UHGV virus genome: UHGV-0017034
Origin: a virus
Strand: one strand, 5' to 3'
DNA length: 20,747 nucleotides
Shown: positions 1,608 to 20,747 of the stretch, in pieces
Position numbering within the stretch: the stretch's first letter is position 1
How the letters are laid out: every line of letters begins with the position of its first letter
Translations under genes and position numbers: made by a program
The notes under the pieces: generated by a model
Told to the model about the DNA's origin: nothing
Database searches by the model: none
The model's input: only the letters and a program-made list of their open reading frames with translations

Positions 1608-4600
1608 TTACCCTAATTTAGCTTCAATTGCAGCAAGACGTTCACGAAGAAGTTTATTTTCTTCGCTCATTTCTTGGACCGCTTTAATTAAAAGCGCGTT
1701 CACTGCGGAGTTTGAAATTGTTAAAATTTCTTCTGGGTTATCAAAACCACCAATTTTTGCGGTTTTAACAGCTTCCGGTAATACCTCTTGTAAATCCTGT
1801 GCGATAATACCAATCTCATGACCTATAACTTCTCGGTCATTAAGAGATTTAACTTTATCGTAGGTTTTAACTTTGAGTTTATTTACCTTATCCACCGCAT
1901 TTTCTTCGTAATCTTCAACATTAATTTTCAGACGACGATCGGAACGAATATAAACATCGTTAAAGTTTCCGTTACCAGTGGCATGAAATTCTCCACTTGC
2001 ATGGAATTGATAATCAGCACCCTGAACATGAAGAACCGCTGCCGCAGTATTATTACTATCACCGGGACAATGAACGTCCATAGCAGCGATGTAGTTACGC
2101 CCCCAATCAACCGCTTTCCAAATAGCATGAGCACTATCAACGCTTTGTTGACAGTCAACCAACAAACCAGCAGGTCGGTCTCTCCATGCAACATATGCAC
2201 CACCAGAAACCTCACCACGGATAAGTCCTTGATCTGCGGCATAAGGAACACGCCCTTCCAGTTTAATCATCGCGCCCTGGAAGTGATGTGTAAATTGTCC
2301 ACCGTGGTTATTGCGAATATGTAAAATACCCTCATCTGTAGCCCAGATAACAGCCTTTTCCGTATCGCTATCATCTCTAAACCAGACGTGGCGAGCACCA
2401 GCAGAGTTTTTGATAGTAATCCCGGAAGGTCCATGCACAGTAAAAGCGCCAGCAACATCAAACATCAAACTGTTATCTGTCCTACGTTCAGTATAGAAGT
2501 GATAACCTTTGGAATCACCGACTTCCATCACTGCCGCGCGACCAACTTCTGAATTTCCCCAATTATTAATAGAGAATCGTTCAGAGCTATTATTCATCTG
2601 ATTTAGGTATAATGTACCATCAGTGAATGTTTCGCCAAAGAATCTGGTTTTAACGCCGTTAGTACCCCCCACGCGTTCAAATTCAGCCAAGAAACCTTTG
2701 GAATCTCGCATACTCAAAACGTTATTGCGTCCTGTATTACTGTTACCCCAATGGATTAATTCAATATAGTCCATTGACTGACGAGACCCTGATCTAAACA
2801 CCATATTATCTTCGATGCGGGTGCTACCATCAATTCCCAGATGTAAACAGCGTGCGGTAGCTGTGCCACCTAGATCTAATCCACCTTCGGCGAAATCATA
2901 ACTAAATGGTCTACGAGTGTTCCACGTCCCAAAGGAATCTTTTAAATCGGTAGTAAGAATATGGAAGCTAGAACCATCATTACGAAGGATTAAACCATAG
3001 TTACCACCTTTGACAGCCAAACGAGCATTTTCAGATAATGCCACTTCGCTATTCATTACAATTTTCTGGCCTCTACCGCCAGTAATATGTAATTCACCGT
3101 CTTCAATCAGGTTTATAGAGTTTTGACCGTTGTCGTTCCACCAAATAAAATCTTTGGTCTGACCATCACCGAAGCCAAACCAGCCATTACGAACATCTTG
3201 TCCAGTGCGATAATCCATGAAATTAAAATGACTTGATTCGTTTGGTCCTCGACGAATATCAATACCAGAATTTCCAGTAACACCGCCATCCAATGTTAAT
3301 TTCTTGACATGTAACCCGGATGTTGCTGACAGCAATAATTCCTGATTTGTATCTTCGTATCCAGTAGCAAGACGATATGCGTTATCATCAACTGTCTCAT
3401 GCCAGATTGTAGCTGGTGCACAACTACGGAAGCGACGCAACATCTTTTTAGCATTTGTCGGTTGTTCGTTCAAATGCTCAATGTCATATTGGCCTTGATG
3501 ATTGCCAGCAAAATTTAATGTTCCACGGTTGCTAAAGTTATTGAACGATGAAATGTTAAGAGCATCAAAAATTTCGTCTGCAACAGGTTTTTCACCACCC
3601 AGATATTCAGGAGTATCCAACAGGTTTAAAGAAACACCACCGGAAGAAACTTGATATTCTGCTAAAACAAATCCTGTATGTGCACCGTAGTAAGCGTAAA
3701 GATCGTAATTGTCGCCATCGGTTGGAATAGCGCAAAAATGTTGTTCATAATGCCAAATAGTATAATACGCATTGAATACAACACCTTTCGGGCTATTGTT
3801 GCCGCATCGAATCACCAATTCGATAATATTGGCTTGTCCATTATGTCCTACGTTATAACCGTTACCACCAACCAAACGGATCTTAGCCGTGCGACCGTGT
3901 TGTTGTGGCATTGTCAAAGTGCCTAGTTTAAACCAACCACCCTCGATACCAAAATTAAGCGTCTTCTGGAACAGTCGGTCAATTTCTGCTTTCGAATATG
4001 CGCCAATTTCAGCCGGAGTAGGTTTATCACCTTCATGATACATGCGGTGAGAATATGCCAAATGTCCCAATTCATCATAGCCGTATGTTCTTACCGTATG
4101 AACCGGATTAGACCCATAAGTGAACTCAAAACCACGAGCATGATTAACGCCGGATGGGTGCGGAACATGCAAGATCATTGCAATATGACCCGCCAGGTCA
4201 TTCATGCGGAATGCACCAAAGTAGTCAAGATTACGCGCACTCGGATCATCAAAATAGTTTGCGGTCTTAGACAGCAAATAACCATCAGTGTAAGTGTTTA
4301 CGTGCTTTTTGATGTACTTGCCATCACTCGATCCATCGGCTGCATCAATACGGCTTTCTAAACGTGCCAGTTCGGAATCAGTGTAAGACTTGTTATTGTC
4401 AACTTTGCTATGAATTGCTGTATTTTTGGCTTCAACATCACGGGTTAATGCTGCGACGTTATCCGCTGCCTCTTGCTTATTGGCTGCAATCACACCAGTA
4501 AGGTTATTGTAGGTGTCAGTTAACTGATTTTCCGCATAGGCGTGATTTGCTGCGATAGTGCGGTCAGTTTCTGCCTTAATCAAATCAACTTTGTCATTGA

Positions 4601-11077: not shown

Positions 11078-12982
11078 TTAGAACGATGTTATCCAGCTAC
11101 GGCCTCTATTTGGACGTCTGACGATGTTTTGACGTTGTGGTCGTGTGATTGGCTTAGTTTCTTCTATTTGCTCGTTAGATTGCGATTTAGGAGCTTTTAC
11201 GGGTTCTTCGACAACACGGTTTAAGCTGTCTTTCATTGCAATGAGTTTATCCCATGACATTTTTGAAAGAACGTAGCGAGAAGCCGCTGTAGCATACACT
11301 GCGCAGTCGAGCGCCTCGTTCCTAACGCCTGGGTTCTTTACCCATCTCACGCCAGTAGTAGTACGCTTGACAGATTCACTTAAAAGCTGATCGAGATAAT
11401 CATCAGGAACGGTTCCTGATATTTCTAAGCTAATGTGAGGATTGTCTTTCAGGTTTCTAACCAACATTTCACGAAATGCAGTTTTACCCACGTTAACACC
11501 CAACATAAGCAATTCATGACCACCTGTGCGGGTAGGTTTAACCGGAATGATCGGAGCGTTACCAGCAGAACTACCTTTGATAGCGTGTAAGTTCTTCCAC
11601 TTGCCGCAAATACGGTATCCAGCTTGAGTGAATCGACCGTTCGATGTATCAAGGAAGCTGGCGAGCATAGGAACACGATCACCCGATACAGTAGTAAATT
11701 TGGTTTTATGGAAGTTGATTAATCTATCCCATACAGGGGATTCATATCGTTCACAGTTATGATCGTAAAAGCTGCGATGATCCAGAATATAAATCTTATC
11801 CTTTGCCACGCCCATGATTGTAGTTTCTGCGCGATCTAATTGCTGGTCAGTACCCGCACACAAGAAAATCACGTCATCAGGGATATTCTCGATAGAAACA
11901 TCTGTTTTTAGTTGTTCCAGTTCATTTGCTTCTACTGCCGTGTCCTGATCGTCGTATACCTTGCCTAACACGGTGTTATAAAATGATTGTAAATCAAAGG
12001 ATTGCCACGCATGACTAAAATCAACCACACAAGCGCGGATCGTGCTGAAAGGTGAATACAGACGGCTGATCCAGAATCCTGCTACCTCACTTTCACGGGT
12101 TGCTCTCCACTCTCCTTGTGCCACCGCCCTGATCCGCTCTCCTTCTGTCCATGCGTTCTTACAGTGGGGGCAAATATAACGAGCGGTATCAGGATCGGGT
12201 AAGTTCTTACCATCAATGTTACGCCATTCAAACTGTACGTTTTCCCACTCGATCACCTGGTGTCTACCGCAATGAGGACACGGAACAAAAAACATACGCA
12301 TATCGCTTGATAACCATTGCTGGTTAATGCTTCCGAGCTTACTGGTCGGGGTACTGGATACGACTAATCGGCCTTCATCGCCAAAGGTAGTTAAACGGTT
12401 AGCAGCCAGTGCCACCGGATCACCTTCTTCTGAGGCTGTAGCAGCATCGATTTCGTCAAGCAGTCCGACCTTTGCTGTCTTACCGCGTAGGGTTGATGGA
12501 CTAGTAAGCGATACCATATAAAGGAAGTGGTTTGATTTGAGCTGGAGCTGATTGTTGTTATTAACAGAATTGCGATCATTCTTGTCTGTAACCACGTCTT
12601 TTAATGCATCACATGCTTCGATAGACGGTCGGATCTTACCCGCGAGATATTGAGACATTTCTTTAGCGGTTGATTGTCCGATAATCATATTGCATGGATC
12701 GTTAGCCATCTGGTTAAATAGGATGCCGTTCAAGATGGTAGTCTTTCCGATCTGCGCACTGGTCATCAGAACATACTTTTTCTTGTTCTCAAGGAAAGGA
12801 GCATCAATCATACCTTTCTGGAATGACAGCAATTTAACTTTATCCCCAGCTTGAGGACCATCTACCAGCACCATATTCGCTTCGCACCATTCAGAAGGAA
12901 GGAGCTTAGGCGGTGGCGTAATATATTTGGCTGCATTTTTGAGAATCTTTTTTAATTTGGCCTTATTTGAAATCAGTTTCAT
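11078..12982 (-). CDS. terL: Terminase large subunit, lambda GpA family (634 aa)
   Basis: Walker A-like [10 protein letters not shown]; motifs matching lambda gpA as recalled ([11 protein letters not shown] vs LTAGIDSQLDR; [11 protein letters not shown] vs RRNEALDCFVYA; CPHCG...YICPHC zinc-finger-like pairs); GAGGGT RBS. Confidence 0.9.
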
Positions 12983-14981: not shown

Positions 14982-15314
14982 TTACCAATCGATTTCTACT
15001 TGGTCTTCTTCATAATAAGGAATCGCATATTCATAACGCCAATTTTCGATGATTTCACGTTCTTCATTAGTAAGAAGGTGATTGTTAACTGGAGTCGCAT
15101 TGTGATTACCAGCTTCGAATTGCTCGCGAACTTCCAGCATTGCATGAATACCAGTTAAGGTCATCAGATCAAACGGAACATGCATACTACGGGAGATAGT
15201 TTCACGGGATACGCCCCAATCATTTTCTACATGGCTAGGGGTTACAGAAACGGTTTTGCCGGAGATTTTAACAGTCCAGTCATACAGGGATTTAGTGATG
15301 GTAAATTCTTTCAT
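14982..15314 (-). CDS. Hypothetical protein (110 aa)
   Basis: ORF with AGAGGA RBS 7 nt upstream; no recognisable family. Confidence 0.6.
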   Translation of the reverse strand: MKEFTITKSLYDWTVKISGKTVSVTPSHVENDWGVSRETISRSMHVPFDLMTLTGIHAMLEVREQFEAGNHNATPVNNHLLTNEEREIIENWRYEYAIPYYEEDQVEIDW

Positions 15315-15370
15315 GTTACATCCTCTTTACAAATCTAGGTCAAATATAATAAAAGTTGTCAAGTGCGATA

Positions 15371-15399
15371 ATCATAAAAAAGTCATAAATTTTTGTCAA
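15371..15399 (-). promoter_or_regulatory. Sigma70-type promoter (minus strand) TTGACA-17-TATGAT
   Basis: -35 at 15394-15399 and -10 at 15371-15376 read on the minus strand; lies ~50 nt upstream of the 14982-15314 gene. Confidence 0.55.
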
Positions 15400-15412
15400 T
15401 ATACCTTGACAA
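15393..15412. promoter_or_regulatory. Operator-like inverted repeat TTGTCAA-N6-TTGACAA overlapping the -35
   Basis: Perfect 7-bp inverted repeat; the 9-mer GTCAAGTGC nearby (15358-15366) recurs at 16778-16786. Confidence 0.4.
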
Positions 15413-15434
15413 GACGCCAAAGGGTTGACCTAAC

Positions 15435-15893
15435 TTACAGCATATCTAAGCCTTCATCGTAACCGTAGAAGCCACCGTGAGAAGAGAAAGCGATTGGTGC
15501 GTAGTCTTCGTCTTCCTCATCTTCTTCATCTTGTTCTGGGGCTTCCTGAGCGGTTTCTTTGCCGTAATCAGCCATAATCTGGTCAAGATCGGCGATCCCA
15601 TAGTAAGAGCCTAAATCAACGTCATATTCACGGACTTGAAACGGCAGATCATCACGAACAATAATTGCTGGAATATCGTTGTATTGAAGACGACCTTCAT
15701 CAGTAAAACAGTCGATGATCACAGTAGGACGACCATTTCGTTTTAAAGCGTAGAAAGCAGTTGAGTAGTTGGAGTCTTCGGAATGACGAATGATGTTATA
15801 ACCACGATTAGCGAAAACTTCTAGCATATGGAAGTTGCCATAGTTTTCAGAGTCCAGACCCAGAAGTACGAAAGGAGTTTTAGTATTGATCAT
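15435..15893 (-). CDS. Hypothetical protein (152 aa) with a strongly acidic C-terminal tail
   Basis: ORF with GAGGA RBS; C-terminus EAPEQDEEDEEDEDYAPIAFSSHGGFYGYDEGLDML; no recognisable family. Confidence 0.6.
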   Translation of the reverse strand: MINTKTPFVLLGLDSENYGNFHMLEVFANRGYNIIRHSEDSNYSTAFYALKRNGRPTVIIDCFTDEGRLQYNDIPAIIVRDDLPFQVREYDVDLGSYYGIADLDQIMADYGKETAQEAPEQDEEDEEDEDYAPIAFSSHGGFYGYDEGLDML

Positions 15894-16085
15894 AGTGGAA
15901 ATCCTCTAAAAGAAAGTGAATCAAGTAAGTTCACTATTATTTATAACGAGAATTTTTTATCTATTTGGAAGTGATTGGATTCAGTCGGGCTAAAGCCCTC
16001 CTTCATATATTTGATTAAATCATCATCAAAACGAAGAAGTATCTTTAGAATATAAGAATCTTTCTTTTGGAGAAATTATAATCAG

Positions 16086-16350
16086 GAAGCAATTTAGCAA
16101 CCGAAGGTTGCAATCCCGAAGGGATACCAATACCTTTCTAGAAAGTGATTGTTACTCACTTCGTTCGTTTACTAGAATCAGTTAGTAACTAGTATTAAAT
16201 CCCTTTCTAAGAAAATCCTTTCAAAAGCGAGTGAACGCCGTAGGCGTGAACGTGAGCGAAGCGAACTATCCAATCCCTTTCGAATCCTGCTTGCAGGTCT
16301 TAGAAGGTGTTGATGGGCGCTTCGCGCACGGCTACGCCGTATTCTTTTTG
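16086..16350 (+). ncRNA. Candidate structured noncoding RNA (hairpin-dense, ORF-free, ends at a terminator)
   Basis: Hairpins GCAACC-GAA-GGTTGC (16097-16111), ATCCC-GAA-GGGAT (16113-16125), palindrome CTTTCTAGAAAG (16134-16145), AGTGA/TCACT, ACGCC-GTA-GGCGT, CCTGC-TT-GCAGG; stops in all frames; weak TATAAT at ~16074; 5' end uncertain. Confidence 0.3.
16317..16350 (+). terminator. Rho-independent terminator (plus strand) with tandem hairpins
   Basis: GCGC-UUC-GCGC then ACGGC-UAC-GCCGU followed by AUUCUUUUUG; no protein-coding gene upstream on this strand. Confidence 0.6.
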
Positions 16351-16471
16351 CGAGATCTTTCTTGAACGTAGTGAGAGAAAACGAGCAAAAAGGAGAACGT
16401 TAGTTCGAATTTTATATTCTATGGTCTGTGGGGTGAAATGTCTTTCAAGATCATACACTTATGAGATTGAA

Positions 16472-16593
16472 GTGTAGGGTTAGTGTAGGTGTGTAGGTTT
16501 CATAGTGTAGGTTTGAGGGTGTTATAGTGTAGGTTTACTGACTAGTGTAGTGTAGGCCAATCCCTTTAAAGCGTAGGTTTGTAGTGTAGGTTT
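16472..16593. repeat. Iteron array: about 9 copies of GTGTAGG(TTT)
   Basis: Copies start at 16472, 16483, 16491, 16505, 16527, 16550, 16584, with a variant GCGTAGGTTT at 16571 and a half-site at 16545; spacing often 11 or 22-23 bp; flanked by an AT-rich tract (16594-16700). Confidence 0.7.
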
Positions 16594-16698
16594 TTCATCA
16601 AAAATTTTGATAGAAAATTCTTGTATATTATTTAACCGGAAAATCACCAAAAATCGCTGTAAATGCATGATTTAAAAAGAATTATCAAAAGGTCGCCG

Positions 16699-16707
16699 TG
16701 CTATAAT
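16699..16707 (+). promoter_or_regulatory. Extended -10 promoter element TGCTATAAT
   Basis: TG-n-TATAAT perfect match; -35 weak. Confidence 0.35.
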
Positions 16708-16787
16708 AGGTTATAAAGGTTGATAATCGTTATCCGCCATTTTCACACAAAAATTTTGATAGTCATTTCTCGCTTAGGTCAAGTGCA

Positions 16788-16816
16788 TTGACAACTGTCA
16801 AGGATTATTTTATACT
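16788..16816 (+). promoter_or_regulatory. Sigma70 consensus promoter TTGACA-17-TATACT with overlapping palindrome TTGACA-AC-TGTCAA
   Basis: -35 at 16788-16793, -10 at 16811-16816, exact 17-bp spacer; GTCAAGTGC 9-mer at 16778-16786 shared with the 15358 region. Confidence 0.6.
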
Positions 16817-17158
16817 TTTTCTCATTGGTAGGGGTTGAAATTTTCGAAACAATCCCCATATTGATGATAAACAAGATTTTTTCGTGTATAAATACATGCA
16901 TGAAATGATTGTTCACTTCTGAAAATCCCCTGATTCACTGTTAACACACACAGCACTGGTTAAACACACAGTGCCTTTTCGATTGAATAATGTACGAATT
17001 GATTAATTATTAATCTTCTCTTTAGCAATTCGTGCTCCCGCTGATCAGATATACAGTGGTTTTGCAGGGTTTTCTGAAATGACTTTTATAAATAGAAGTA
17101 TCGAGGGCGAAAAGCTCTTTTTATTGTCCTTATTAATCCACATTTGAGGAATCTACTT

Positions 17159-17338
17159 ATGGCTAGACCTGTTAAGTTTACTCGTGAAATGATTGTTGAT
17201 ATTGCTAAACGCTTTTATGGCGATACTGAACGAGGCGGCGAGAATTTCTTTAAGAAGGAAGGAATTGATAGAAGCGGATTCTATAAGCTAATGAAGAAAT
17301 ACGAAATTCAGATAAAGATTAACGTTCAAGTTTGTTAA
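17159..17338 (+). CDS. Small HTH protein (59 aa), paralog of the 13705-13932 product
   Basis: GAGGAA RBS 9 nt upstream of ATG 17159 (the track ORF begins at a TTG at 17144); MARPVKFTREMIVDIAKRFY...GIDRSGFYKLMKKYEIQ parallels the other paralog. Confidence 0.55.
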   Translation: MARPVKFTREMIVDIAKRFYGDTERGGENFFKKEGIDRSGFYKLMKKYEIQIKINVQVC

Positions 17339-17379
17339 TCCACTTTCACTGAGAATTATACGATGGCTTTAAAAATAAA

Positions 17380-17409
17380 AAGCCTCCCTTGTTGCAGCAA
17401 AGGAGGCTT
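17380..17409. promoter_or_regulatory. Long hairpin between the small HTH gene and the 333-aa gene; terminator-like only in minus orientation
   Basis: AAGCCUCC...GGAGGCUU with inner UUGC/GCAA pairing; plus-strand A-run upstream gives a U-tract only on the minus strand. Confidence 0.4.
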
Positions 17410-17454
17410 GAAATGAACAATTAAAACTAACACAGCATTCAGGAGTATTTATAA

Positions 17455-18456
17455 ATGAAAAATTCTAAGCGCATCACCTTCAACCTGTTTATTAAATCCA
17501 ACGGCAAACTGAACATTACCGTCATGGAAGGTAAAGCAAGCAAACAAGACAAATCCTTTGAAGTAGTATCCGGTAAGACTCTGACCGAAATGCGTCAGAA
17601 TGCTGGCATCAAAGACGGTGCTGAATGGCAGATCACTAACCGTTTCGACAAACGTCACGTTAAACCTACACTGGTAGAAGGTGAATCCGTTTATTGCTTC
17701 GCTCGTGCTGTTAAAGCCGATGAAACTTACTATCTCGCTGTTGTTAAAACTGCTTCCGGCTTCCGTGCTGTAATGCATCACAAGAGCAAGCGTAACGAAT
17801 ACGGCGTAGAGACCCAGGAAGTCGCAAAACGCTTCCGTACTGTTGCTACCGAATCCACTGTAAAGGATGTTTCTGGTACTGTTAACACCGTTAAAGGCGG
17901 TTCCTTCTACAACCACGCATTACAGGTTACTTCCTCCTTCTTCTGCAAAAAAGAAGCACAGAAAGAAGTTGCTCCGGTAGTAGTTGAAGAAGTTAAAGAA
18001 GAAGTTGCAGTGGTTGAATCTTCCGAAGTTGAAGCACTGAAAGCACGCATTGCTGAACTGGAAGCTGAAAACGCATCTCTGAAAGCTGAACTGGCAGCAC
18101 AGGAAACCACTTTCGAAGTAGCAGCGGTTGAAGTTGAAGCAGTTGAAGAAAAATCCATTGATGAAGAACTGGAAGAACTCCTTAACTATCGCTGGGGTAA
18201 CGGTGAAAAAGTAGAACAGGAAGAACAGAAAGAAGCTGATCCGGTAGTAGTTCCGGTTGAAGAAAAATCCGCACCTGTTACTAACTTTGAATCCCTGCGC
18301 AATAACTTTATGGCTAAATTCAAAACCACTTGGGAAGATACCGAAGAAGAACAAGAAGAGATTGAAGTAAACGAAGACGAGATCCGCGAAGCACAGATGG
18401 CACTGCATGACGCTATCTACGACACCAACTACAGCGCCTACGCATACGCAGCTTAA
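17455..18456 (+). CDS. Hypothetical abundant protein (333 aa): N-terminal globular domain plus acidic Glu/Val/Ala-rich coiled coil
   Basis: AGGAG RBS; codon usage visibly different from neighbours (CGT, CTG, GGT, TCC, ACC, GAA, AAA, TTC, TAC preferred), typical of highly expressed E. coli-type genes; leucine-zipper-like EALKARIAELEAENASLKAELAA. Confidence 0.8.
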   Translation: MKNSKRITFNLFIKSNGKLNITVMEGKASKQDKSFEVVSGKTLTEMRQNAGIKDGAEWQITNRFDKRHVKPTLVEGESVYCFARAVKADETYYLAVVKTASGFRAVMHHKSKRNEYGVETQEVAKRFRTVATESTVKDVSGTVNTVKGGSFYNHALQVTSSFFCKKEAQKEVAPVVVEEVKEEVAVVESSEVEALKARIAELEAENASLKAELAAQETTFEVAAVEVEAVEEKSIDEELEELLNYRWGNGEKVEQEEQKEADPVVVPVEEKSAPVTNFESLRNNFMAKFKTTWEDTEEEQEEIEVNEDEIREAQMALHDAIYDTNYSAYAYAA

Positions 18457-18471
18457 TAGAGGGGTGAATCT

Positions 18472-18714
18472 ATGATGAATCAAAACAAAGAATTTCTGGG
18501 TAATCTGATGTTAGAAATTACCAAAATGAAAGAAAGAATGGTAGCGATGGAATCAGAGATTAAAACACTTAAAGCTGATAATAAGGCGTTGAGAAAGTCC
18601 TTAAAGCTGATTGATGAGACTAATGCGGTTATGATGGATCATGTATTCCCTGAGTGGCGAAATGAAACTAAACCTACACAACATAAGAAACTTACACTTC
18701 GAATTGTTGCATAA
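18472..18714 (+). CDS. Small coiled-coil protein (80 aa)
   Basis: GAGGGG RBS; heptad-like MKERMVAMESEIKTLKADNKALRKSLKLI; starts 16 nt after the upstream stop. Confidence 0.55.
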   Translation: MMNQNKEFLGNLMLEITKMKERMVAMESEIKTLKADNKALRKSLKLIDETNAVMMDHVFPEWRNETKPTQHKKLTLRIVA

Positions 18715-18736
18715 AAAAAAGGACTCCGAAGAGTCC
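18713..18736 (-). terminator. Bidirectional-type terminator hairpin (U8 tract on the minus strand)
   Basis: GGACUC-CGAA/UUCG-GAGUCC perfect 6-bp stem; plus-strand A8 at 18713-18720 gives U8 after the stem on the minus strand; also lies immediately 3' of the plus-strand 80-aa gene. Confidence 0.65.
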
Positions 18737-18812
18737 CTAGTAAGTTTAGGTTAGGTTTGCACAACAAAGATGAGGTTATAATGAACATAATGCTACATTA
18801 TTCTTTAAAGCC

Positions 18813-18838
18813 AGAAAAATAACCGCCCCGAAGGGCGG
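18813..18838 (-). terminator. Rho-independent terminator (minus strand) ending the small-terminase transcript
   Basis: Minus-strand RNA CCGCCC-UUCG-GGGCGG followed by UUAUUUUUCU. Confidence 0.65.
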
Positions 18839-19000
18839 GAGGATTAATACTCAATCTATACTTGTTATGTTTTTATGTTGTATAGATCCTGACTATGAAA
18901 ACACTGTACTGGAAGTGTGTTTTTATGGCTTTTAATCGGGAATCCTCAAAGAAGATCCCCTGTTAATAACCATAAGGAGAAAAGGCAGATTACACTATTA

Positions 19001-19171
19001 TTTAGTATCCTTTTTACAGCAACTAAAAAGAATAAACAAAAAGAAGCATACCCAGCCGTAAGGCGTACCGATTAGAAATTTGAAAAACACCACCAGCGAT
19101 ATAAAAATCAATTTAATGCCAGCGACGATAGTCAAAAACAGCAGAGTAGCAAAGTAGACAAAAAGATCCAT
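19001..19171 (-). CDS. Small hydrophobic membrane protein (56 aa, about two TM segments), below the ORF-track cutoff
   Basis: AAGAGG RBS 7 nt upstream of ATG; hand translation MDLFVYFATLLFLTIVAGIKLIFISLVVFFKFLIGTPYGWVCFFLFILFSCCKKDTK. Confidence 0.5.
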
Positions 19172-19224
19172 AGATAATCCTCTTTGAAAACGACCATCAT
19201 CTATAGTTCAATTCATCGATTTAA

Positions 19225-19326
19225 TTAATGATACTTGAAAGCGTTACACAAAGTAGAAATGCCAATATGTGCCAGTGAATATACGATAGTTAATCCTACA
19301 GCCAGATAAATCAAAAATTCAACCAT
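19225..19326 (-). CDS. Possible 33-aa hydrophobic peptide
   Basis: GAGGA about 9 nt upstream; hand translation MVEFLIYLAVGLTIVYSLAHIGISTLCNAFKYH; very short, weakly supported. Confidence 0.3.
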   Translation of the reverse strand: MVEFLIYLAVGLTIVYSLAHIGISTLCNAFKYH

Positions 19327-19356
19327 AGGTAAATCCTCAAATAAGAAAAAGGTTAG

Positions 19357-19375
19357 CGGGGGATGTTCTCCCCCG
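19357..19375 (-). promoter_or_regulatory. Hairpin downstream of the small terminase gene
   Basis: CGGGGGA-N5-UCCCCCG perfect 7-bp stem; U-rich tract begins about 6 nt after the stem on the minus strand. Confidence 0.35.
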
Positions 19376-19426
19376 TAGACGTTGACCAGCTCAACATCCT
19401 TCACGTATATATTTAGTATCTAATTT

Positions 19427-19978
19427 TTAAGACACATCAAATTCATCGTCTTCTTCTGGTTCTTGTTCCGGTTCATCCATTAATGGTAATTCTTCTTCCT
19501 CGTCTTCTCCCAAATCTGCATTTTCGAACAAGTCCCCTACTTCATTTAAACGACGCTCGATAATCTCTCTTAGCTTATTCTTCAATGTTTTCTGGTCATT
19601 GGCAGATTCGAGAATTTCTAGGGCATCGATTGTGGCGATCTGCAAAATAGTCTGCTTCACTTTCCCGCAATATTCCGCTAGCTCCTGCTCCACATACCCG
19701 ACGGGAATCAGGAGATTCATCGCTTCCTGGTTCTCTCGTTCGGCTGCATCTGCTAATGCTCTCTCACGGCGTAATTTCTCTACGTCGATTTGTTCCTTGA
19801 CAGTAGTTTCTTTAAGCGGGTTGATGATATTTTTCAAGACCCATTCTGTTCCTTCTTTGGCTGGCACGCGGCGGGTATTGGTATTAAATGGCATTCCTCG
19901 TTCTTGCCATTTCTTAGCGGCGTTAATTGTATAGCCGTATAAACGGGAAATTTCTGTAAGGGTTAATTCTTCTTTCAT
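19427..19978 (-). CDS. terS: Terminase small subunit, lambda Nu1-like (183 aa from the RBS-supported start)
   Basis: LTLTEISRLYGYTINAAKKWQERGMPF parallels the lambda Nu1 N-terminal HTH (IFGASIRTIQNWQEQGMPV as recalled); acidic C-terminal tail; GGAGGA sits 8 nt upstream of Met-6 (19978), while the first ATG at 19993 has no SD. Confidence 0.65.
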   Translation of the reverse strand: MKEELTLTEISRLYGYTINAAKKWQERGMPFNTNTRRVPAKEGTEWVLKNIINPLKETTVKEQIDVEKLRRERALADAAERENQEAMNLLIPVGYVEQELAEYCGKVKQTILQIATIDALEILESANDQKTLKNKLREIIERRLNEVGDLFENADLGEDEEEELPLMDEPEQEPEEDDEFDVS

Positions 19979-20089
19979 CCGGTTATCCTCCATTAAATTT
20001 GCGTAAAATTATTTATCTGATCTGCGCATTCAGGAGAGCGCCTAAAACGCTTTATAACGAAGGGAAAGATCGAGGCATGGAAAGGGATT

Positions 20090-20140
20090 GGCGGGTGTTA
20101 ATAGTCGCGTAGCGACCGCGCTGGTGGGCTGCACTGCACC
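20090..20140. other. Candidate cos / packaging-initiation site
   Basis: GC-rich island in AT-rich DNA about 120 bp upstream of the Nu1-like gene, containing the perfect palindrome GTCGC-GTA-GCGAC (20104-20116); GGAAAGGGA-like repeats lie between it and the gene. Confidence 0.25.
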
Positions 20141-20217
20141 TGTTTTGAAATCTCACACGTACATCAAAAACCGGGGTGCCGAAAACTCCCTTTATTTCAT
20201 CCGTGGAACAGTACCTT

Positions 20218-20246
20218 TTGATTTGGTCAAGTCTTTTTTATAAATA
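20218..20246 (+). promoter_or_regulatory. Possible promoter for the 20278 gene (TTGATT, short spacer, TATAAA/ATAAAT)
   Basis: -35-like TTGATT at 20218-20223 and -10-like TATAAA at 20239-20244; spacer is 15-16 nt, so weak. Confidence 0.3.
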
Positions 20247-20277
20247 ATCGAAAATATTTTTCACGCGAGGGCAAATC

Positions 20278-20583
20278 ATGAAGACTAAAGATATTAAGAT
20301 TGAATTTGAAACTGTTGATGACGTTCGGGAACATCGCATTGATTCTACTGGCTGCATCTTCCAGCTTACTAACTCCCCTATTGGATTGATTATCTATGTA
20401 GCAGAAGATGACGTGTACGCTATATGGGATGGACAGGATGAGTTTAAAGGCGGGAATAGCCATCTGATCAATACTCATGAGGGATTTGATCCGACTCCTG
20501 TCTGTATGCTTGCTTATCACGTAACACTGGATGAACTACCGGAAGCAAGCGCGCGTATCCGTAGAATGAAAGACATTAAGTGA
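20278..20583 (+). CDS. Hypothetical protein (101 aa)
   Basis: GAGGG RBS 5 nt upstream of ATG; followed 20 nt later by a strong terminator; divergent from terS. Confidence 0.6.
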   Translation: MKTKDIKIEFETVDDVREHRIDSTGCIFQLTNSPIGLIIYVAEDDVYAIWDGQDEFKGGNSHLINTHEGFDPTPVCMLAYHVTLDELPEASARIRRMKDIK

Positions 20584-20602
20584 TGTAAGTGATTGATTCT
20601 AT

Positions 20603-20633
20603 AGCCCTGTCCTTGTGATGGGGCTTTTTTATT
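20603..20633 (+). terminator. Rho-independent terminator (plus strand)
   Basis: AGCCCUGUC-CUUGU-GAUGGGGCU (9-bp stem with two G-U) followed by UUUUUUAUU. Confidence 0.7.
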
Positions 20634-20649
20634 GGAAAATCGGGTGTTA

Positions 20650-20747
<98 letters not shown>

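Follow-up and report, generated by a model that had tools for sequence, protein, structure and literature searches.

UHGV virus genome UHGV-0017034 is a stretch of 20,747 nucleotides (nt), called the window here when its whole length is meant. On its minus strand, directly behind a terS-like gene for a small terminase subunit, are two short open reading frames (ORFs) that encode hydrophobic peptides of 33 and 57 amino acids (aa). These two, ORF33 and ORF57, are very probably genuine protein-coding genes, and the cassette architecture in which they lie is held with the same high confidence. The pair is real, conserved and annotated only sporadically, and it is a member of no described family. 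As judged by comparison of related loci, it is one allelic form of a cassette slot that is lineage-wide, always occupied and exchangeable. Absent from an initial annotation of the window were the findings that the pair is one slot allele, that other alleles encode a single protein with three transmembrane (TM) helices, and that the flanking hairpins are conserved with compensatory changes. The best explanation overall, held with moderate confidence, is that ORF33 and ORF57 are genuine, co-transcribed and swappable cassette genes whose products would be membrane-active at a late stage. The genes concerned are:

19427–19993, minus strand: terS-like gene, first cistron of the unit, encoding a Nu1-like small terminase of 188 aa (PHROG 57 'terminase small subunit', E=7e-16, residues 2–173)
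19225–19326 including the stop codon, minus strand: ORF33, hydrophobic peptide of 33 aa with a single predicted helix, product MVEFLIYLAVGLTIVYSLAHIGISTLCNAFKYH; Shine-Dalgarno (SD) motif GAGGA at 19338–19334, 7 nt before the ATG
18998–19171 including the stop codon, minus strand: ORF57, hydrophobic protein of 57 aa with two predicted helices, product MDLFVYFATLLFLTIVAGIKLIFISLVVFFKFLIGTPYGWVCFFLFILFSCCKKDTK; SD motif GAGGA at 19182–19178, 6 nt before the ATG

Evidence that ORF33 and ORF57 are genes

The initial annotation had described two minus-strand ORFs preceded by ribosome-binding sites, one of 33 aa with a single helix and one of 56 aa with two TM stretches, immediately downstream of terS. 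The smaller ORF is present at 19225–19326 with a consistent hydropathy profile, both GAGGA sites are in place at 7 nt and 6 nt, and the upstream 188-aa gene is indeed terS-like by its match to PHROG 57. For the larger ORF the two helices stood and the length did not: the product has 57 aa, and position 19001, given as its boundary, is the first base past the stop codon. The two products have grand average of hydropathy (GRAVY) values of 1.21 and 1.56. AlphaFold2 predicts two helices in the ORF57 product, at residues 2–35 and 37–55, with a mean predicted local distance difference test score of 80. Hydropathy and AlphaFold2 agree, and the predictions fit a one-helix membrane peptide for ORF33 and a two-helix membrane peptide for ORF57. 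Hydrophobicity alone is not diagnostic here, because other, out-of-frame ORFs of the window reach GRAVY values of 1.3–1.7.

The case for genuine genes has to be weighed against the alternative that both are chance or decaying ORFs without function, in a T-rich, structured intergenic region that acts at the RNA or DNA level through terminators or processing sites. Hydrophobic ORFs arise easily in AT-rich or T-rich DNA, the NCBI annotation pipeline PGAP skips both ORFs in the nearest genomes, and the flanking structures are conserved at least as well as the ORFs. Against this stands the pattern of variation among 23 related IMG/VR contigs, which were found through terS. Both ORFs are intact in 15 of the 23 loci, with 91–100% protein identity. 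In the DNA alignment of these 15 sequences all insertions and deletions fall outside the ORFs – several of them around the ORFs and none inside – and the SD motifs are invariant. Substitutions at codon positions 1, 2 and 3 number 10, 4 and 19.

Ratios of non-synonymous to synonymous differences (pN/pS, Nei-Gojobori) are 0.21 for ORF33, 0.24 for ORF57 and 0.24 for the alternative 94-aa allele described below. In the shifted frames, by contrast, the ratios are greater than 1 (1.56 and 1.73 for ORF57), except for one ORF33 frame (0.41). Chance occurrence was estimated by shuffling the 712-nt intergenic stretch 5000 times with its dinucleotide composition preserved. An ATG-initiated ORF of at least 57 aa appeared in 18% of the shuffles, which is a point in favour of chance. 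An SD-preceded ORF of this kind on the same strand appeared in 1.1%. A pair of SD-preceded ORFs, both of 33 aa or more and one reaching at least 57 aa, appeared in only 0.04%.

Counterparts of the encoded proteins also exist in more distant prophages. Salmonella prophages with a ca. 70%-identical terS have a 60-aa ORF (MFEFIFLVLMVIATIAAYILVTIFFIFAFLFFTFPGWIILLCILILSSIFGKGNKGKRNK) and a 33-aa ORF (MFDFLIYLTGLLTVSYLVSYIVIKFICHFLFNK) in the same place with their order swapped; they are recognisably related to ORF57 and ORF33, and in multiple alignments are 28–36% identical to the window peptides. A relative with a 54%-identical terS has a single 32-aa peptide behind the same ribosome-binding context, TTTGAGGATT. 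The initial annotation's proposal of genes downstream of terS is thus well borne out: the frames evolve under purifying selection, the SD sites are kept and Salmonella has diverged counterparts. The initial annotation had named loss of the reading frames in related genomes as evidence to the contrary, and the frames are conserved. That the ORFs are products of chance or decay is, on these results, highly improbable.

A longer form of ORF33, starting at an upstream GTG or ATG and giving 56–73 aa, appears in some GenBank records and was rejected. The upstream starts have no SD motif, and the extension runs through the hairpins described below, whose compensatory changes alter its residues. A 2-nt insertion or deletion shifts its frame in several loci, and a stop codon closes it in the 94-aa allele.

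RefSeq/PGAP omits both ORFs in the closest complete genomes, and to this extent the earlier description of the genes as unannotated is correct. It does not hold for some GenBank records, in which they figure as hypothetical or putative membrane proteins. A protein identical to the 57-aa product has been recorded from at least 1000 contigs, under 'hypothetical' or 'putative membrane protein', and one identical to the 33-aa peptide from 422 contigs, under 'Uncharacterised protein'. Annotation systematically misses small membrane proteins; here comparative data alone establish two that RefSeq omits.

The cassette slot and its alleles

In the other eight IMG/VR loci, and in many complete genomes, the same flanks enclose one 94-aa ORF (annotated by PGAP as WP_000190125.1), for which AlphaFold2 predicts three helices. 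An exhaustive search of 1.84 billion proteins with a hidden Markov model of the 94-aa family yielded no more than five additional representatives, four of them of 92–95 aa and 31–42% identical to the 94-aa allele. Genomic context was examined for the four full-length representatives, the 35-aa P0087 and P0086 being left out. All four are encoded directly after a terS homologue and are followed by the same convergent genes, in prophages at different chromosomal sites.

In all of about 40 loci (the 23 IMG/VR contigs, E. coli genomes with annotation, and relatives from Salmonella and from metagenomes) the slot is occupied by at least one hydrophobic ORF. It takes four forms: 33+57 aa, 60+33 aa, one three-helix protein of 92–95 aa, or one 32-aa peptide. 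The slot of the window is 99.5% identical to that of strain 14EC017, while terS is only 91% identical. This contrast between flanks, with identities that can reach 99.5%, and terS at 91% means that recombination at the slot is frequent. Exchange of the cassettes seems to proceed by recombination at conserved flanks, among them the direct repeat GATACTAAATA and the last codons (..K-x-T-K-stop). Constantly present and yet freely exchanged, the cassette is found throughout a lineage that occurs in Salmonella and in about 1% of the complete genomes of E. coli.

The possibility that the 33+57-aa pair is a split form of the 94-aa protein was considered, and homology was not established. BLASTP found nothing, shuffle tests gave p=0.012 to 0.06, and hhalign was significant for the last 12 residues only, which are partly shared flank. 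The C-terminal K-x-T-K-stop common to the pair and the 94-aa protein is part of the conserved 3' flank.

Two loci carry insertions in or near the slot. In E. coli HeN100 (NZ_CP044443.1 2395013–2399332, locus L026) an ISApl1-mcr-1.1 unit, conferring colistin resistance, is inserted in the slot; the transposon disrupts the cassette, because homology to the window ends at about 19031, inside the 57-aa ORF. In IMGVR_UViG_2877285697_000006 (about 1750–3090, locus L019) an insertion of ca. 1.3 kb breaks the second of the two hairpins behind terS, and both small ORFs are intact downstream.

The sequence TTTTTTGAGGATG, which is the ribosome-binding context of the 32-aa and 33-aa peptides, is kept upstream of the 92–95-aa ORFs in four loci (L062, L037, L035 and L039), where it is followed only by a mini-ORF of 3–7 codons. 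Upstream of these three-helix alleles it may be the relic of a lost one-helix peptide gene, or a leader.

Conserved structures around the cassette

The cassette is flanked by repeats and by potential RNA structures, all on the minus strand:

19410–19420, minus strand: direct repeat GATACTAAATA, upstream copy, just after the terS stop codon; the window has only two copies, both flanking the cassette
19378–19398, minus strand: hairpin 1 (GAUGUUGA / UCAACGUC, loop GCUGG); 2 of 8 pairs with compensatory changes among 15 distinct sequences
19357–19375, minus strand: hairpin 2 (CGGGGGA-GAACA-UCCCCCG); six outer pairs invariant in 15 sequences, closing pair switching between A-U and G-C
18999–19009, minus strand: direct repeat GATACTAAATA, downstream copy, overlapping the last ORF57 codons (D-T-K-stop)
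18923–18975, minus strand: long three-tier stem-loop in the 3' untranslated region (UTR); the 294-nt 3' region folds with z=-4.87
18823–18838, minus strand: intrinsic terminator 1 (CCGCCC-TTCG-GGGCGG followed by TTATTTTT), conserved in E. coli, Salmonella and distant relatives
18719–18738, minus strand: intrinsic terminator 2 (AGGGACTC-TTCG-GAGTCCTT followed by T8), conserved in relatives

The cassette is described as bracketed by the direct repeat because the second copy of GATACTAAATA sits just past the terS stop codon. The repeat has 17 nt in L037 (GATACTAAATAATAGTG) and is shorter in L062. The terminal ORFs of the cassettes all end in ..TAAATAA, followed by a sequence resembling T.xTGTAAT.

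On the terS-sense strand hairpin 1 is directly upstream of hairpin 2, and the spacer between terS and ORF33 folds with z=-2.97. Together the two hairpins are 96.8% paired across 15 distinct sequences, and three pairs show compensatory changes. The hairpin that the initial annotation had placed at 19357–19375 is exactly there (CGGGGGA-GAACA-TCCCCCG in DNA letters). It was considered as a canonical terminator and rejected as such: its T-run is displaced by 7 nt and is not conserved. For the 3' stem-loop, RNAalifold analysis of eight diverged sequences (E. coli, Salmonella and more distant relatives) gave 14 pairs, eight of them with compensatory changes. The two terminators mentioned earlier were recovered as the minus-strand intrinsic terminators at 18823–18838 and 18719–18738.

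Two of these palindromes differ between relatives in that the loop is inverted and the stem kept: GAACA versus TGTTC in hairpin 2 (19363–19368) and CTTCG versus CGAAG in terminator 1 (18829–18832). Loop inversion was seen in L009, L015, L021 and L023, with the hairpin 2 loop inverted in L009, and suggests palindrome-mediated flipping at the DNA level. The spacer of ca. 85 nt between the terminators (18739–18822) is conserved from E. coli to Salmonella and includes a CTTTGTTGTG...CCTAA block as well as a TATAAC/TATAAT motif. Terminator 2 could conceivably form the end of a short RNA; a convincing -35 element was not found in this spacer.

Transcription of the cassette

A crude consensus scan of the minus strand between 19000 and 20000 found no sigma-70-like promoter site. 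ORF33 and ORF57 are probably co-transcribed with terS, because the interval from terS to the two ORFs has no detectable sigma-70 promoter; as distal cistrons of the terS unit they would therefore be expressed late in lytic growth. The proposed unit runs from the terS-like gene through two conserved hairpins, SD-ORF33, SD-ORF57 and the long conserved stem-loop to the two terminators. ORF33 and ORF57 would be its distal cistrons, with the hairpins perhaps attenuating their transcription, and their products would be made late in lytic growth and lie in the inner membrane.

The sole consensus promoter-like match in the cassette is a weak (9/12) site on the plus strand, antisense to the genes, at 19080–19108 inside ORF57. 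Convergent with the cassette is a plus-strand operon at 17144–18714, which encodes a 64-aa protein resembling helix-turn-helix proteins, a 333-aa acidic coiled-coil protein and an 80-aa leucine-zipper-like protein. No plus-strand intrinsic terminator was found for it. Plus-strand transcripts that read through would run antisense to both the cassette and terS, because both terminators carry their T-tracts on the minus strand only.

Possible functions of the cassette proteins

Similarity searches assigned no function. The initial annotation had proposed holin/antiholin-like, superinfection-exclusion or membrane-depolarising peptides, and sequence, profile and fold searches tied the proteins to none of these. 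Scans of all cassette proteins against Pfam, NCBIfam, PADLOC and PHROG gave nothing significant, and no holin, superinfection-exclusion, toxin or defence family. In PHROG, ORF57 had no match at E≤10 and ORF33 matched only families of unknown function (E 0.2–0.35); the sole line labelled 'holin' was for the Salmonella 60-aa protein, at E=3.5. No Rfam family was found at E≤1 in 15000–20747, and a tRNA scan found none. A literature search on this prophage, and on membrane-protein morons next to terminase genes, found only analogies (SieA and the Tab system of JBD26).

Tentatively, and on sequence-based grounds, a late membrane-active role is preferred: the peptides would be holin/antiholin-like, act in lysis timing, or depolarise the membrane. 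The ORFs are on the terS strand directly behind terS. The cassette proteins have one to three predicted TM helices and a short basic C-terminal tail, which in the Salmonella 60-aa protein has 10 residues (GKGNKGKRNK). The slot is always occupied, which suggests a core rather than an optional function. Holins and antiholins such as lambda S105/S107, the phage 21 pinholin S68 and T7 gp17.5 are likewise small. T7-type phages have holin and spanin genes on either side of the gene for the small terminase subunit; the order in T7 is 17.5 (holin), 18 (terS), 18.5/18.7 (spanins) and 19 (terL). The cassette proteins resemble holins in their size, their one to three predicted TM helices, their short basic C-terminus, their extreme diversity among relatives and their probable late expression, and T7 provides a precedent for membrane lysis genes around the small-terminase gene. 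Unlike holins, they have no family match, no linkage to an endolysin and no dual-start motif.

Several observations weigh against a late lytic role. The family scans were negative, with no Pfam match of the ORFs to holin families even at E≤10, and a Foldseek search of BFVD with AlphaFold2 models gave no match for ORF57 and, for the 94-aa allele, no match at E≤0.001. In one relative the slot encodes just a single-helix peptide of 32 aa, which is to our knowledge smaller than any holin. Holins have a charged, hydrophilic cytoplasmic domain at the C-terminus; the C-terminal tails of the cassette proteins, apart from that of the Salmonella 60-aa protein, are basic but very short (KKDTK, NAFKYH, FKQTK), with 5 residues in ORF57. 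Co-transcription with terS is also open to challenge: a weak or activator-dependent promoter after terS could escape a consensus scan, and a TATAAATA-like motif, without a -35 element, follows the terS stop codon in most relatives.

The position of the lysis genes is a further difficulty. The initial annotation had remarked that no endolysin lies nearby, and there is none in the window; in a complete genome some 30 kb separate its gene from the slot, placing it at the opposite end of the prophage, with operons on both strands between. It is a soluble, VanY-type protein of 117 aa (PHROG 894), encoded in an unusual lysis region (L028 15251–17343, equivalent to NZ_CP024134.1 2560250–2562342). The immediate neighbours of the endolysin gene encode soluble proteins of 115 aa and 65 aa without TM segments, and therefore no holin is assigned for the prophage. 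A few genes upstream of the endolysin are small TM-containing ORFs of 56 aa and of 92 aa (an N-terminal TM segment and a coiled coil), and either could be the real holin. No lipoprotein spanin was found among the six translated ORFs of the lysis region.

The mosaic structure of the slot is also what would be expected of conflict genes: unrelated alleles, from 33+57 aa to 94 aa, lie between near-identical flanks. The cassette proteins might thus be superinfection-exclusion or moron-type inner-membrane proteins, expressed from the prophage or early after infection, that block DNA entry or another step of related phages. The slot is near the prophage end, beside an outward-facing gene of the LprI family that resembles a conversion gene; its GC content is 33–37%, against 44–49% for terS; and terminators follow the ORFs. 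Inner-membrane proteins of superinfection exclusion include HK97 gp15 and T4 Imm. Another is P22 SieA, a prophage-encoded protein of 162–164 aa with three predicted TM helices (PMC10883804). The cassette proteins, likewise prophage-encoded, are predicted to lie in the inner membrane, and the cassette resembles SieA in the three predicted helices of the 94-aa allele, in its highly diverged allelic types and in being an accessory-looking slot followed by terminators.

A precedent that favours the exclusion reading is found in Pseudomonas phage JBD26, where a moron slot, Tab/anti-Tab, lies between terS and terL, with atab right after terS and co-transcribed in the late operon (PMC10884400). The likeness to the present cassette is in the accessory genes that follow terS immediately. 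The sequences are unrelated, and terS and terL are here 6.4 kb apart with whole operons between them; Tab and anti-Tab act on tail assembly and are not described as membrane proteins (PMC10884400).

An exclusion function is nevertheless unlikely. A moron would carry its own promoter as well as a terminator; two terminators are present, and the consensus scan found no promoter-like site between terS and the ORFs. The slot is never empty, while morons typically vary by presence and absence. PADLOC gave no match and PHROG nothing significant to exclusion or defence proteins. The slot peptides have no homology to SieA and are much smaller, and known exclusion proteins are larger than 32–33 aa.

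Finally, the peptides could be depolarising toxins of the type I kind, their mRNA held in check by RNA structure and by antisense RNA from the convergent plus-strand operon, and serve to maintain the prophage or act in abortive defence. Type I toxins (Hok, TisB, Ldr and ZorO, and in Bacillus subtilis prophages txpA/RatA and bsrG/SR4) are hydrophobic peptides of 19–60 aa, often prophage-borne and in diverged multiple copies, with heavily structured mRNAs. ORF33, ORF57 and the 32-aa peptide fit in size (less than ca. 60 aa) and hydrophobicity, and type I loci commonly consist of tandem copies that have diverged. The 5' and 3' UTRs of the cassette are strongly structured (z -2.97 and -4.87) with covariation. 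The convergent operon for the 64-, 333- and 80-aa proteins ends at 18714, and read-through from it would place the cassette under an antisense RNA overlapping its 3' end.

This reading is considered improbable on several grounds. No Rfam antitoxin RNA was found at E≤1, and Hok/Gef, Ldr, TisB, Ibs, ShoB and similar toxins gave no Pfam match at E≤10 and no NCBIfam match at E≤1. No dedicated promoter was found on the toxin strand, the only candidate being the weak antisense site within ORF57. The alternative three-helix alleles of 92–95 aa are atypical of type I toxins, and the place of the ORFs, directly behind terS and sharing its strand, speaks for an operon over a stand-alone module.

Beyond these known kinds, the slot could be a previously undescribed phage module, in which recombination-swappable micro-proteins with one to three TM helices are tied to terS. 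Covarying hairpins and direct repeats would enclose it, and antisense transcription from the convergent side might silence it. The module would then be a new class of holin or lysis timer apart from the endolysin, or a toxin-like membrane switch specific to an uncultured lineage. This is rather doubtful. The cassette is a tractable candidate for a new family of lysis, exclusion or toxin peptides, and nothing yet points beyond the known kinds of mechanism. Should the peptides govern lysis timing, exclusion or membrane potential, those functions would gain a new sequence family, and a natural allelic series of micro-proteins of 33–95 aa would provide a compact study system. If they are ordinary accessory peptides, the main value is in better annotation.

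The prophage and its lineage

The window is part of an E. coli prophage of ca. 38 kb inserted in hicB, an example of which is found in NZ_CP024134.1 at 2,556,690–2,594,648. Its minus strand carries genes for tail, head and portal proteins and for a large terminase of the lambda gpA type (terL, 11078–12982). Between terS and terL, over a distance of 6.4 kb, are whole short operons of alternating orientation, including one with a Rha-family regulator. The 188-aa terS-like protein had no match in a Pfam scan; NCBI and UniRef name some of its homologues terminase small subunit. In several genomes the match to terS is limited to its first 316 nt, and this gene is a mosaic as well.

The prophage lineage is one without a cultured relative. 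Searches of 50,697 phage records gave no match to terS or ORF57 (tblastn) or to the cassette region (megablast), and the best match to terL is 45% identical. A profile scan for terS covering one genome per species found no relative. The lineage is carried by about 63 of 5,426 complete E. coli genomes (about 1%), and Salmonella also carries prophages of this family.

Between terS and the attachment junction in hicB is an outward-facing gene for an LprI-family lysozyme inhibitor (20340–20747 in the window; 10641–11420 in L024), likely a lysogenic-conversion gene. In the opposite direction, between two divergent operons, is an ORF-poor region of ca. 1.25 kb (15894–17143, with no ORF of at least 60 aa), and relatives have a gap of similar size. 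Within it, at 16471–16593, are about seven copies of an iteron-like repeat, TAGTGTAGGTTT, at spacings of 11 and 22 nt, which may be a prophage replication origin or an operator array.

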